Of a stretch of 58,014 nt of DNA, positions 19,263 through 57,432 are shown piece by piece. The stretch comes from Candidatus Magasanikiibacteriota bacterium (GTDB lineage Bacteria; Patescibacteriota; Patescibacteriia; Magasanikbacterales; 2-02-FULL-50-9b). The translations under genes and the position numbers were made by a program. Within the stretch, counting starts at the first letter, position 1, and every line of letters begins with the position of its first letter. The stretch covers positions 1 through 58,014 of the forward strand of contig CALRDW010000001.1 of assembly GCA_943355025.1 (NCBI GenBank). The letters run 5' to 3'. The notes under the pieces were generated by a model, which did no database searches, was not told the origin of the DNA, and was given only the letters and a program-made list of their open reading frames with translations.

Positions 19263-19339
19263 TGGCGGACTGGAAGGGACTCGAACCCTCGACCTTCCGC
19301 GTGACAGGCGGACGTTCTAACCAGCTGAACTACCAGTCC
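19263..19339 (-). tRNA. tRNA-Asp (GTC)
   Basis: Cloverleaf GGACTGG/CCAGTCC, anticodon loop CT-GTC-AC, GGTTCGAGTCC, encoded CCA. Confidence 0.97.
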
Positions 19340-19425
19340 AAGTGAGGCTGACAATGAGTGTTTACACTCGATTGTCATGCCGAGCGCGGACGCCGTAGTT
19401 ACGAATGTAACTACCAGTCCAGCGC
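19340..19425 (-). repeat. tRNA-Asp 5' leader element with duplicated tRNA 5' end
   Basis: 13-bp direct repeat 19328-19340/19409-19421 inside a long hairpin; second hairpin with a GTAAAC loop. Confidence 0.75.
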
Positions 19426-53037: not shown

Positions 53038-53571
53038 GTGCTAAAGTTCAATAAAATTGCGGCTATCTGGGTGGCGGTACTGCCCGTGCTTTACTTGGCC
53101 GTGCAGATTGGATTTTTGTGTTTGGGGGCAGCCGTTTTTGCGTCGGTCGCATATCTCGCGGTTCCACGAATGTTGTTTATGTTCATTCTGGCGCCCGCTG
53201 TGGTTGTGTTAGTAGCATGGGCTGAGTGCATCTGGAAAGACCACTTTGGCGAGGTTTACACATGGGATTTTCCAGAGTGGAAGCGCGCCGTGGTGTTCAT
53301 AGTCGCCGGGCTTGTCAGCATGTGGCTGACGTTCTGTGTAAAGCAGGTGTTTTTTAAAGGCTCTGTCGTGCTCAACGACCACGTGACTTTTACTGGCTAC
53401 ACTCTTATTTTGGCCATAGTCTATGTTGGCGTTGAGTGTGGAAGCAGCGCGCTGGTGATCGATCGGAATATCGGTCGTTGGCGCAACTGGCTCGGCTATT
53501 ATGGCCAGCAGCCGTCGCCGGACCGGTGGCGCGCGATCAAAGAAATTCTTCGTGGTCGGGCTGAGCACTAA
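53038..53571 (+). CDS. Polytopic membrane ORFan (cassette 7)
   Basis: GGAGG SD, GTG start; 4-5 hydrophobic segments. Confidence 0.7.
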   Translation: MLKFNKIAAIWVAVLPVLYLAVQIGFLCLGAAVFASVAYLAVPRMLFMFILAPAVVVLVAWAECIWKDHFGEVYTWDFPEWKRAVVFIVAGLVSMWLTFCVKQVFFKGSVVLNDHVTFTGYTLILAIVYVGVECGSSALVIDRNIGRWRNWLGYYGQQPSPDRWRAIKEILRGRAEH

Positions 53572-53592
53572 GATGCGCGTCCGCTCTGAGCA

Positions 53593-53644
53593 AGGCGATT
53601 CGGTGGTTTGTGGAAACACAACTACCTGAGTCGCTTTTTTATTT
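53593..53644 (+). terminator. Cassette 7 terminator
   Basis: AGGCGATTC...GAGTCGCTT then TTTTATTT. Confidence 0.7.
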
Positions 53645-53702
53645 AACGAGGGACTTGCAAAAAATTGGGTTTTAGATATAATGATGCAGTTCAAGTTCGT
53701 TT

Positions 53703-53849
53703 GACCCACAGATCCTTCGCAGTTCGCAGAATTGCTCGGAACTTCTGGACTTCGACCCGTAGATCCTTCGCAGCCTTCGGCTGCTCGGGGCTACCGGGTC
53801 TCGCTCGCGAGAAAACCCGTACGTAAACGTCCAGTTTTCTCACTCACTC
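53703..53849 (+). repeat. tRNA-Lys 5' leader element with sense and antisense copies of the tRNA 5' end
   Basis: GACCC..AGATCCTTCGCAG twice; GCTACCGGGTC (53790-53800) complementary to tRNA nt 1-11. Confidence 0.75.
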
Positions 53850-53922
53850 GACCCGGTAGCTCAGCTGGTAGAGCAGTAGCCTTTTAAGCTAACGGTCGTG
53901 GGTTCAAATCCCACCCGGGTCA
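53850..53922 (+). tRNA. tRNA-Lys (TTT), CCA not encoded
   Basis: GACCCGG/CCGGGTC acceptor, loop CT-TTT-AA, GGTTCAAATCC. Confidence 0.95.
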
Positions 53923-53923
53923 T

Positions 53924-53957
53924 AATAAAAATCCCTCTGTAAGGAGGGATTTTTATT
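53924..53957 (+). terminator. Terminator after tRNA-Lys
   Basis: AATAAAAATCCCTC/GAGGGATTTTTATT. Confidence 0.85.
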
Positions 53958-53987
53958 TTGCGCGTTAAATGCTACACTGATACGGTT

Positions 53988-55316
53988 ATGATTGCCACGC
54001 TTCGTAAAATAATACCACAGCCAATTTTTAAACTATATCACTGGCTCATGTCAGTGAGTGGTGCTTTTTATTACGGCTATCCAACAAAACGAATGATGGT
54101 TGTTGGTATAACAGGCACGAGTGGAAAATCGACAACGGTTTTTTTATTGCACAAAATTTTGACGCACGCAGGGCTTAAAGTTGGCTCAAGTTCGACGATT
54201 GAATTTTGTATCGGCGCGGAGTGCACGCTCAATAAAACAAAGATGACGCAACTTGGTCGGTGGGGGACACAGGCGATGCTTGCTCGAATGCGCACAGCCG
54301 GCTGCGATATCGCGATTGTTGAAACCACATCACAGGGTGTTGAACAATTTCGACACATTGGAATTTTTTACGACGCTCTGATGCTCACAAATTTATATCC
54401 GGAACATATTGAAGCGCACGGAAGTTTTGAAAATTATAAAAATGCAAAGAAAAAATTATTTGCCTATCTCGCGACCCTGCCACTCAAGAAAAAATTTAAA
54501 ATTCCGAAAACAATCATTGTAAACGGAGCCGTAAAGGAGGCTGCAGAATTTATCGCGTTTCCTGTTGAGCGAAAGTGGGCACTCGGCCAATCGATTCCAG
54601 GCTCTAGCCGCGTTTTAGCTGCAGAAAATTCTAATATCACAGCCTCGGGCGTTGAATTCGATCTCGACCTCATACATTTTTCGGTGCCGCTCCTCGGAGG
54701 CCATGTTATTGATAATGCAGTTGCTGCAACTGCTGCTGCGGCTGCGCTTGGTATTAGCTTAGACACGTCTGCGGAAGCGCTTCGAGAAATCAGATCGGTT
54801 CCTGGACGCACAGAACTTATCGACGAGGGGCAGCCATTTAAAATAATGGTTGATTTTGCGTTCGAGCCCGTTGCAATGTCAAAATTATATGAGTTGGTAA
54901 AATTAATTCCACACAATCGTATTTTGCACGTGCTTGGAGGAACCGGTGGTGGGCGTGATGCGGCGCGTCGGCCGCTGCTTGGAAACATTGCCGGAGATAA
55001 CGCCGCGCTTGTTTTTGTCACAAATGAAGATCCGTATGATGAAGATCCGCAAAAAATTATGGATGACGTTGCAGCTGGCGTGCGTGGCGTTGGAAAACGT
55101 GATGGCGTAGATTTTTTTGTGATTCCAGATCGACGTGCCGCAATTGCGCGCGCAGTGCAATTAGCTGAAAAAAATGATATCATTTTAATTACAGGTAAAG
55201 GTTGTGAGCAAGCGATCATCGGGCCAGAGCGTTCGATGACGCCGTGGGATGACCGTGCAGTTGTCCGTGAAGAGCTCGCAAAATTAAAATCAACATGGGA
55301 ATTGTCGGCAAAATAA
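53988..55316 (+). CDS. murE: UDP-N-acetylmuramoyl-tripeptide synthetase
   Basis: GITGT.GKSTT, E.TS.G, TNL..EH...HG, VPGR.E, RD..RRP..G, NEDP, GKG.E. Confidence 0.92.
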   Translation: MIATLRKIIPQPIFKLYHWLMSVSGAFYYGYPTKRMMVVGITGTSGKSTTVFLLHKILTHAGLKVGSSSTIEFCIGAECTLNKTKMTQLGRWGTQAMLARMRTAGCDIAIVETTSQGVEQFRHIGIFYDALMLTNLYPEHIEAHGSFENYKNAKKKLFAYLATLPLKKKFKIPKTIIVNGAVKEAAEFIAFPVERKWALGQSIPGSSRVLAAENSNITASGVEFDLDLIHFSVPLLGGHVIDNAVAATAAAAALGISLDTSAEALREIRSVPGRTELIDEGQPFKIMVDFAFEPVAMSKLYELVKLIPHNRILHVLGGTGGGRDAARRPLLGNIAGDNAALVFVTNEDPYDEDPQKIMDDVAAGVRGVGKRDGVDFFVIPDRRAAIARAVQLAEKNDIILITGKGCEQAIIGPERSMTPWDDRAVVREELAKLKSTWELSAK

Positions 55317-57270: not shown

Positions 57271-57344
57271 GCGGGGTTAGTACAATGGTAGTATGCGTGC
57301 TTCCCAAGCATGAGACGCGAGTCCGATTCTCGTACCCCGCTCCA
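57271..57344 (+). tRNA. tRNA-Gly (CCC)
   Basis: GCGGGGT/ACCCCGC, loop TT-CCC-AA, discriminator T plus CCA. Confidence 0.93.
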
Positions 57345-57357
57345 CACGCGATGCCTC

Positions 57358-57432
57358 GCGGGTATCGTATAATGGCTATTATGCGTCCTTGCCAAGGACG
57401 AGAAACGGGTCCGATTCCCGTTACCCGCTCCA
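57358..57432 (+). tRNA. tRNA-Gly (GCC)
   Basis: GCGGGTA/TACCCGC, loop TT-GCC-AA, discriminator T plus CCA. Confidence 0.93.

Follow-up and report, generated by a model that had tools for sequence, protein, structure and literature searches.

A conserved, folded 5′ leader cassette of tRNA precursors in Patescibacteria that carries a copy and a complement of the start of its own tRNA

The 5′ leaders of bacterial tRNA precursors (pre-tRNAs) are usually seen as short, disposable single strands, and we know of no natural family of structured leaders that reads or masks its own tRNA. In published work, RNase P is blocked when an engineered leader masks positions −1 to −4 (PMC7897497), and it is inhibited when pairing of the leader lengthens the acceptor stem (PMC9433436). 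The present analysis concerns a stretch of 58,014 nucleotides from Candidatus Magasanikiibacteriota bacterium (assembly GCA_943355025.1, contig CALRDW010000001.1, positions 1 to 58,014; hereafter the window), and in particular the region immediately upstream of its tRNA-Lys(UUU) gene. Judged by its sequence, this region is one copy of a conserved, folded 5′ leader cassette of tRNA precursors in Patescibacteria, which are ultra-small bacteria; the cassette forms an uncatalogued family. The cassette is a real, conserved and apparently undescribed pre-tRNA leader element, which probably accompanies or gates the trimming of the precursor. Its layout is as follows: hairpin A, made of a decoy that repeats the start of the tRNA, a conserved core and an anti-acceptor arm that is complementary to the tRNA start; a linker L1 (TCGYTC); hairpin B; a second linker L2 (TCRCTY); and the tRNA itself.

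Two covariance models were used, R1 for hairpin A and R2 for L1-hairpin B-L2. R1 matched six units in this 988-kb genome and 2–6 units in each of six other genomes of the family, which puts the structured tRNA-Lys leader far beyond chance; it found no match in 34 genomes from nine other families of the order. The leader had first been pointed out in an initial annotation made from the sequence alone. The two tandem units, the 11-nt antisense of the tRNA start, the stem with a GTAAAC loop and the motifs flanking it that were described there were all recovered. The parts of the locus, together with the second copy in the window, are listed below.

53655..53682, + strand: sigma-70-like promoter (TTGCAA, 16 nt, TATAAT), predicted to drive the leader and tRNA-Lys
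53703..53753, + strand: hairpin A′, a decayed unit that retains a copy of the tRNA start and the core motif and whose 3′ arm is degraded; weak R1 match
53754..53762, + strand: decoy ('mimic') arm of hairpin A, copying tRNA-Lys nt 1–6 and 8–10 with one G missing
53763..53789, + strand: conserved core of hairpin A, with a short stem, a UUC/UC internal loop and a variable apical hairpin (R1 alignment)
53790..53800, + strand: anti-acceptor arm, the exact reverse complement of tRNA-Lys nt 1–11 (53850–53860)
53801..53806, + strand: linker L1 (TCGCTC), whose columns 3–4 pair with L2 in the R2 alignment
53807..53843, + strand: hairpin B, a stem with C.A mismatches and an internal loop and with a G-UAAA-C apex; R2 match of 68 bits
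53844..53849, + strand: linker L2 (TCACTC), ending at the RNase P site −1/+1; R2 columns 74/75 pair with L1 columns 4/3
53850..53922, + strand: tRNA-Lys(UUU), CCA not encoded (ARAGORN and Rfam)
53931..53959, + strand: terminator-like hairpin followed by a T run, 3′ of the tRNA, read directly from the sequence (a simple terminator scan did not list it)
19340..19420, − strand: leader of tRNA-Asp(GUC), the second copy in the window; R2 match at 19330–19387, 63.3 bits

The two A units start at 53703 (GACCCACAGATCCTTCGCAG) and 53754 (GACCCGTAGATCCTTCGCAG), and the decayed one, which is among the six R1 matches, scored E 0.04 in one search and 0.0034 in another. Downstream of the anti-acceptor, TCGCTCGC occupies 53801–53808, the hairpin with the GTAAAC apex spans 53809–53841, and ACTCACTC at 53842–53849 abuts tRNA +1. 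When 53500–54100 was scanned for promoters, the site at 53655–53682 was the only promoter-like site on either strand. The duplex between the anti-acceptor at 53790–53800 and its own tRNA-Lys reached −23.8 kcal/mol, compared with a mean of −11.3 for 27 other tRNAs, none of which equalled it.

For each of the 44 tRNA genes of the genome the upstream 200 nt were listed, and the cassette was present at five of the genes: Lys(UUU) and Asp(GUC) in the window, and Lys(CUU), Thr(GGU) and Val(UAC) on other contigs. Most tRNAs of this genome have leaders of a few bases and lack the motif. The proposal that the architecture is iterated at other tRNAs is borne out by these copies, including the one at tRNA-Asp. 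In that leader a simplified hairpin A (19420–19388) consists of an exact copy of tRNA nt 1–12, a loop and an imperfect antisense; L1 reads GCGCTC, hairpin B has the identical GTAAAC apex, and L2 reads CTCACTT. At E ≤ 0.0034 the R1 set comprised 30 units. ARAGORN called a tRNA 3–142 nt downstream on the same strand in 29 of these, and the 30th runs up to the end of its contig, where the start of a tRNA-Ile can still be seen. Same-strand promoters were found upstream of 13 of 26 homologous leaders. Elsewhere in the window (57271–57432), tRNA-Gly(CCC) and tRNA-Gly(GCC) lie 13 nt apart behind one promoter-like site, with an ordinary leader that has no cassette.

The structure of the cassette is under selection. 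The alignment of L1-hairpin B-L2 comprised 76 sequences, and 500 shuffles and slid registers served as controls. Across hairpin B and L1:L2, 92.2% of the cells were paired, compared with 66.7% in the shuffles, and changes on both sides were seen in all 18 pairs (compensatory in all 16 pairs of hairpin B). None of the 500 shuffles reached the observed values, and no slid register came near the observed pairing values. The first L1:L2 pair was GC in 70 sequences, AU in three and GU in three; the second was UA in 31, CG in 23, U.G or G.U in four and C.A in 17 (Fisher p = 2e-5). Because both pairs are unpaired in the model, the alignment could not favour them. The 'TC' next to hairpin B was found in 76/76 sequences on the L1 side (columns 5–6) and in 74/76 on the L2 side. 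With L1:L2 paired and the TC invariant, hairpin B continues into a 2×2 UC/UC loop, then into a 2-bp helix and finally into another pyrimidine loop, which is looser. In the R1 alignment, columns 13/38 of the hairpin A core covary from C-G to A-U and 141 of 146 cells of the apical stem are Watson-Crick, while the apical loops differ among homologues. That L1 might pair with the upper part of the hairpin B stem was considered by eye, and the idea was dropped for its weak correlation. Readings as a self-cleaving ribozyme or a K-turn were dropped as well, since no known core motif was visible on the sense strand.

The arms of hairpin A track the tRNA that they precede. With nt 1–12 of its own tRNA the anti-acceptor gave a mean of −13.9 kcal/mol, compared with −8.7 for 764 mismatched pairings, and for 14 of the 29 units no more than one foreign tRNA paired equally well. 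The acceptor stems of the Lys-UUU and Lys-CUU tRNAs differ, and each leader holds the exact antisense of its own. In one relative (G001) tRNA-Asp has changed from U5 to C relative to another (G003), and decoy and anti-acceptor both change alongside. Several decoys are short by one or two bases, and the bases that are then bulged in the anti-acceptor (C, CC or T) complement tRNA nt 6–7 (G, GG or A). The complement has therefore been kept towards the tRNA itself and not merely towards the decoy.

Two alternative folds are open to such a precursor. In the minimum-free-energy fold of the whole sense precursor, the anti-acceptor was paired with tRNA nt 1–13 and the cloverleaf was broken; the helix is predicted to stack via L1:L2 onto hairpin B, giving a single rod. 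The two states were compared in 23 leaders by forcing either the acceptor stem (ON) or the upstream pairing of tRNA nt 1–7 (OFF). The difference E(OFF)−E(ON), which takes no account of tRNA tertiary structure or modifications, averaged −1.6 kcal/mol with a range of −10.9 to +4.4, and OFF was the lower in 11 of the 23. By predicted energies the two helices are thus mutually exclusive and of comparable stability, as in attenuator-like RNA switches. The L1:L2 pairs cover leader positions −3/−4. The genome has a standard RNase P, with a type A RNA (C33:267–729, 116 bits) and RnpA, and the RNA contains no GAGYGA-type complement to L2.

The explanation that we tentatively prefer, with a probability that we place somewhat short of even, is that the co-transcribed leader would act as a bistable gate on maturation by RNase P, its anti-acceptor pairing either with the decoy or with the 5′ strand of the tRNA. 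It is suggested by the fixed position and strand of the cassette, the covariation of its helices, the way in which its arms track the tRNA, the near-equal alternative folds, the presence of RNase P RNA and RnpA, the block of RNase P by leader masking and the location of the L1:L2 pairs at −3/−4. The promoter at 53655–53682 would transcribe the leader together with tRNA-Lys, and four strands would then compete: the decoy (1), the anti-acceptor (2), the tRNA 5′ strand (3) and the tRNA 3′ acceptor strand (4). In the ON state (1:2), hairpin A would form, the tRNA would fold, L2 would be accessible and RNase P would cut after it. In the OFF state (2:3), a helix of 11–13 bp would stack through L1:L2 onto hairpin B as a long rod, the cloverleaf could not form and positions −3/−4 would be paired. 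The logic of an attenuator (1:2 + 3:4 versus 2:3) would in this way be transferred to tRNA maturation, as a gate or a timing device. The invariant UC/UC loop beside hairpin B would be a probable docking site of a protein that stabilises one of the states or cuts there.

Several observations weigh against such a gate. The cassette has no known ligand or protein partner; for about half of the units the specificity of the anti-acceptor is only moderate; and the energies compared above leave tertiary structure and modifications aside. The occurrence of the cassette is patchy and its copy number varies. R2 matched 11 of 150 other genomes of the order, from five families, 4 of 150 in a class sample and 1 of 150 in a phylum sample. 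Near-identical copies are also found at unrelated tRNAs without re-adaptation of the anti-acceptor arm, as at Ile-gat and Val-gac of relative G006. Such a pattern would be more usual for a cassette that spreads than for an essential regulator.

The asymmetry between the strands is a further point on this side. The initial annotation held that the element folds best on the strand opposite to the tRNA, and this was the case for 53754–53860 with both parameter sets: −47.1 kcal/mol (z −5.06) on the plus strand and −61.7 (z −7.56) on the minus strand with RNA parameters, and −27.3 and −30.4 kcal/mol, respectively, with DNA parameters. All four z scores were below −5, and no shuffle reached the value of either strand. 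Among the homologues, RNA parameters favoured the minus strand for 20 of 28 A modules and for 14 of 24 B modules, and DNA parameters gave a similar result. In the 76-sequence alignment, A.C exceeded G.U in hairpin B (30 versus 16) and C.A exceeded U.G/G.U at the L1:L2 pair (17 versus 4); counted in sense orientation, A.C versus G.U was 24 to 8 in the family and 16 to 7 in named metagenome-assembled genomes (MAGs). Hairpin A was without strand bias (G.U 21 versus A.C 19, and 17 versus 12 in another count). The claim that sense-strand mismatches become wobbles on the minus strand is supported for hairpin B and the linkers. A sense RNA helix normally shows the reverse of an A.C excess, and an excess of this kind is what selection of the helix on the minus strand would be expected to leave. 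It amounts to about two to one among sequences that are related, and the need for a deliberately imperfect sense helix could also yield it. Read on the minus strand, the invariant UC dinucleotides form tandem G.A pairs with G-C on either side, and by the counts of TC given above the pyrimidine/purine asymmetry of the strands is conserved. The cGAAg loop noted on the minus strand is present in this copy and specific to it, since apical loops vary among homologues. The strand asymmetry is real and conserved, and we leave it unexplained.

The main rival to a gate is a selfish or duplicative insertion at the tRNA 5′ boundary, which would be harmless because RNase P cuts the cassette from the transcript, and whose decoy would have arisen by duplication of part of the target. 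Propagation would then be served by the hairpins, the purine-rich linkers of the bottom strand and the anti-acceptor as a 'guide', possibly as folded single-stranded DNA (ssDNA) of the bottom strand, which accords with a minus strand that folds better and tolerates tandem G.A and G.T. We consider this unlikely, and it is kept as the main rival on account of a pattern that resembles copying and that gene conversion could also explain. The patchy distribution favours it, with 2–9 copies in every family member, as does presence or absence at orthologous tRNAs: G002, G004 and G006 have the cassette at Ile-gat, whereas the present genome (G000) retains only an L2-like TCACTAC behind a boxA-like leader. 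Arrays and decayed units point the same way. Unit number varied when relatives were compared as the initial annotation had suggested, with two A units at Val-tac in G000, A-B-A-B in G003 and one unit in G002, and with two units at Asp in G001 and one in G003; Arg-GCG of G010 also carries A-B-A-B. Neither an unconserved asymmetry nor an invariant unit number with a motif absent elsewhere, either of which would have spoken against that annotation, was found, because the asymmetry is conserved, the unit number varies and the motif is shared. The iterated units may have arisen by the repeated insertion events that it envisaged or by tandem duplication.

In G006, the leaders of Ile-gat and Val-gac are near-identical over the stretch that begins with the core and ends with L2; their upstream flanks are unrelated, and each decoy matches its own tRNA. 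From the sequences, this looks like copying of the cassette with the decoy acting as a target duplication, which would agree with repeated insertion; gene conversion between the paralogous leaders would look no different. Hairpin A often has an L2-like motif in front of it, as if an old tRNA leader had been displaced. On the other hand, the apparent duplication is not of fixed length (5–7 nt), terminal inverted repeats are absent, viral contigs gave no match to the cassette pattern, and the lack of strand bias in hairpin A is not expected. The bottom strand would moreover be the leading-strand template for co-oriented tRNA genes. Within orthologues, decoy, anti-acceptor and tRNA co-vary, which implies selection on the pairing.

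Neither an HUH/Y1 nor an IS110-type enzyme for such an insertion was found. PF01797 (Y1_Tnp, HUH) had no match in this genome, which is 98% complete, and none in the five other carriers, whereas control genomes were matched; PF01548 (IS110 DEDD) was absent from all five genomes searched. Together with the location of the units on the tRNA strand below a same-strand promoter, this speaks against the ssDNA/HUH mechanism of the initial annotation, and with that strand and promoter the cassette is necessarily part of the sense pre-tRNA. GIY-YIG domains gave 11 matches in seven genomes, in UvrC-sized proteins and in small open reading frames (ORFs) of 87–95 aa. In this genome they lie on C16 and C5, whereas the contigs with cassettes are C1, C3, C10 and C14. 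The small GIY-YIG gene of this genome, a kind of gene that the initial annotation had proposed to check for flanking hairpins, is thus not beside a cassette, and R1 and R2 found no cassette on C16. On that contig the GIY-YIG ORF, an 87-aa open frame (C16:14529–14750, minus), lies divergently 75 nt from a tRNA-Trp gene (C16:14826–14901, plus).

Quite unlikely, in our judgement, is a processing punctuation that involves no switch, in which a UC-R-Y-UC motif precedes each G-started helix (hairpin A, hairpin B and the tRNA) and RNase P or another endonuclease cuts at the junctions. The long leader would be chopped into stable hairpins that merely protect or time the precursor. L1 and L2 are indeed direct repeats of one motif, many leaders have the L2-like motif before hairpin A as well, the decoy takes the place of the tRNA after L2 in arrays, and RNase P RNA and protein are standard. 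What such punctuation leaves unexplained is that hairpin A copies its own tRNA and carries the complement, and that L1 pairs with L2; most tRNAs of the genome, furthermore, manage with leaders of a few bases that lack the motif.

Less likely again is a mobile, self-copying element that would use RNase P as its 'splicing' enzyme. It would be guided by the anti-acceptor to the tRNA 5′ boundary and would duplicate nt 1–11 as the decoy, at low cost to the host; its bottom-strand intermediate would be rich in G.A and G.T, its enzyme would be neither a known HUH nor an IS110 enzyme, and it might later have been co-opted as a gate. We regard as improbable that the functional molecule is an antisense RNA, or a cDNA from the leader, in the form of a long rod with tandem G.A pairs and G.U wobbles. 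The deeper minus-strand RNA fold, the conservation of GAGYGA and GARCGA, the purine linkers complementary to the invariant UC, and the excess of A.C over G.U in sense orientation are in line with it. However, 53500–54100 contains no promoter-like site on the minus strand, which tells against the antisense function raised in the initial annotation; a hairpin with flanking A and T runs closes the 3′ side of the tRNA; and the asymmetry is modest and absent from hairpin A. A functionless scar, with partial tRNA copies left by an integrase (attL/attR) or by 'break-and-restore' of a homing endonuclease, is highly improbable: it would account for the direct copy of the tRNA 5′ end upstream of an intact gene, but not for the inverted copy or for some 90 nt of conserved, covarying structure between the copies across the order, the class and named MAGs of several groups of the candidate phyla radiation (CPR), and neither an integrase nor an endonuclease gene adjoins the five cassettes of this genome. 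An integrase att-site duplication was likewise rejected for the tRNA-Lys locus, where decoy and tRNA start are ~96 nt apart and the interval is a conserved hairpin cassette, not foreign DNA with an integrase.

A gate on maturation remains the reading that we prefer, and the cassette for which it is proposed has a wider distribution in Patescibacteria. An exact-pattern scan with one genome per species returned 46 stretches, of which 34 were kept. The titles of their MAGs include Patescibacteria, Parcubacteria, Paceibacteria, Magasanikbacteria, Zambryskibacteria, Kaiserbacteria, Nomurabacteria, Gracilibacteria and 'Saccharibacteria', a few further MAGs have doubtful automatic names, and ARAGORN called a tRNA directly downstream in 25 of the 34. 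Position and strand relative to the tRNA are fixed: in 61 of 76 distinct R2 matches, which cover 19 anticodon types, the tRNA starts within 2 nt of the predicted +1. The remaining 15 lie at contig ends, before interrupted tRNAs or before the next decoy of an array, or are unclear, and one precedes an ORF. In distant lineages hairpin A is often plain (a copy of tRNA nt 1–12, a short loop and the complement), and the linkers and hairpin B are unchanged in form. Apart from the match before an ORF, no cassette was found away from tRNA leaders.

That match (L067, G015:C21:6061–6112; 34 bits) is the only module-B-like match before an ATG-started ORF, as if it were in the 5′ untranslated region of an mRNA. 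In two contigs of named Patescibacteria-type MAGs (L097 and L107), tRNA-Thr(GGU)-like genes start normally after L2, and unrelated sequence interrupts them just 3′ of the anticodon. ARAGORN calls no tRNA at either gene, and the interruption may be an anticodon-loop intron. The 12 stretches of the pattern scan that were set aside as unrelated scored 14.6–28.8 bits with R2, compared with 30–76 bits for tRNA-linked copies. Four are repeat copies in one 'delta proteobacterium' MAG (L083, L087, L096 and L111), seven belong to Gastranaerophilales/Melainabacteria MAGs (L085, L098, L099, L104, L113, L118 and L122), and one lies in a coding region of Butyrivibrio. The repeats of the first two groups are multi-copy and contain TCGCTC-GGAA..hairpin..TTCC-TCGCTY. 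They are not beside tRNAs, have flanking inverted repeats of their own and are regarded as unrelated families.

The cassette was then compared with catalogued RNAs and other described systems. At the gathering thresholds of Rfam 15, only the four tRNAs of the window were matched. With E values up to 10 on 53600–53960, all 13 matches started at or after 53850, in the tRNA or the terminator, and none in the leader. Full-text searches of the literature brought up no account of structured tRNA leaders in CPR bacteria. The terms sought do not occur in the main text of a survey of 224 motifs (PMC5737381), and the view that its motif list lacks the cassette is based on Rfam 15. A T-box leader was rejected, as there was no Rfam match, the downstream gene is the tRNA itself and no U tract precedes it. 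Also rejected was an archaeal bulge-helix-bulge: EndA (PF01974) was found in none of five genomes, and the motif consists of two 2×2 loops around a 2-bp helix, not of 3-nt bulges 4 bp apart. A boxA/nut site was rejected too: the 16S and Ile-23S leaders carry GCTCGTTTACAAC and GCTCTTAGTTCAAAA, with which L1 and L2 have only GCTC(G) in common, and R2 gave no match in either leader. These boxA-like sequences lie below promoters in the 16S rRNA and tRNA-Ile(GAU) leaders of this genome (C12:3620–3640 and C12:6461–6475); the 16S gene and tRNA-Ile are ~1.27 kb apart and apparently have separate promoters.

Should the cassette gate RNase P processing, organisms that have single-copy tRNA genes and minimal regulation would possess a further, new level at which tRNA supply is controlled. 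Should it be a self-spreading insertion made harmless by RNase P, it would represent a new lifestyle for selfish DNA, analogous to introns. In either case the cassette model can be used to annotate such leaders in CPR genomes and to derive constructs for RNase P assays in vitro.

Among known systems, membership in REP/RAYT, IS200/IS605, IS110, bulge-helix-bulge, boxA/nut, T-box and att-scar classes fails in each case on at least one defining feature. REP/BIME elements with their RAYT (HUH) enzyme and the palindromic elements of IS200/IS605, in which a guide pairs with the flanking target, resemble the cassette in being short, multi-copy, hairpin-forming, intergenic and strand-asymmetric. They are scattered after genes, however, share one sequence and need a Y1 enzyme, whereas each of the five cassettes in this genome abuts tRNA +1 with tRNA-specific arms and no Y1 gene was found. 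Partial tRNA duplications at attL/attR likewise place a direct copy of a tRNA end beside an intact gene, but they flank kilobases of foreign DNA, have no inverted copy and no conserved covarying hairpins, and usually involve the 3′ end. RNase P external guide sequences also pair with a target so that the helix starts exactly at the cleavage site; they act in trans with a 3′ CCA-like tail, whereas the strand of the cassette lies in cis and is followed by UCGYUC.

With amino-acid operon attenuators the cassette has in common four consecutive segments with mutually exclusive pairings. It differs from them in that its 3:4 pairing is the acceptor stem of the tRNA and not a terminator, and in that it has neither a leader peptide nor a U tract. 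In engineered RNase P riboswitches, as described by Ender et al. 2021 (PMC7897497), a structured 5′ leader sets the access of RNase P through an alternative, sequestering pairing, as is proposed here. Those devices are synthetic and ligand-driven and mask the leader only, whereas the cassette is natural and has no known ligand. The sequestering strand of the cassette is, in addition, directed at nt 1–11 of the tRNA itself and is in turn masked by the decoy. A design otherwise built only synthetically is found here in front of at least 19 tRNA species, in a cassette that is conserved with covariation in several lineages of Patescibacteria.

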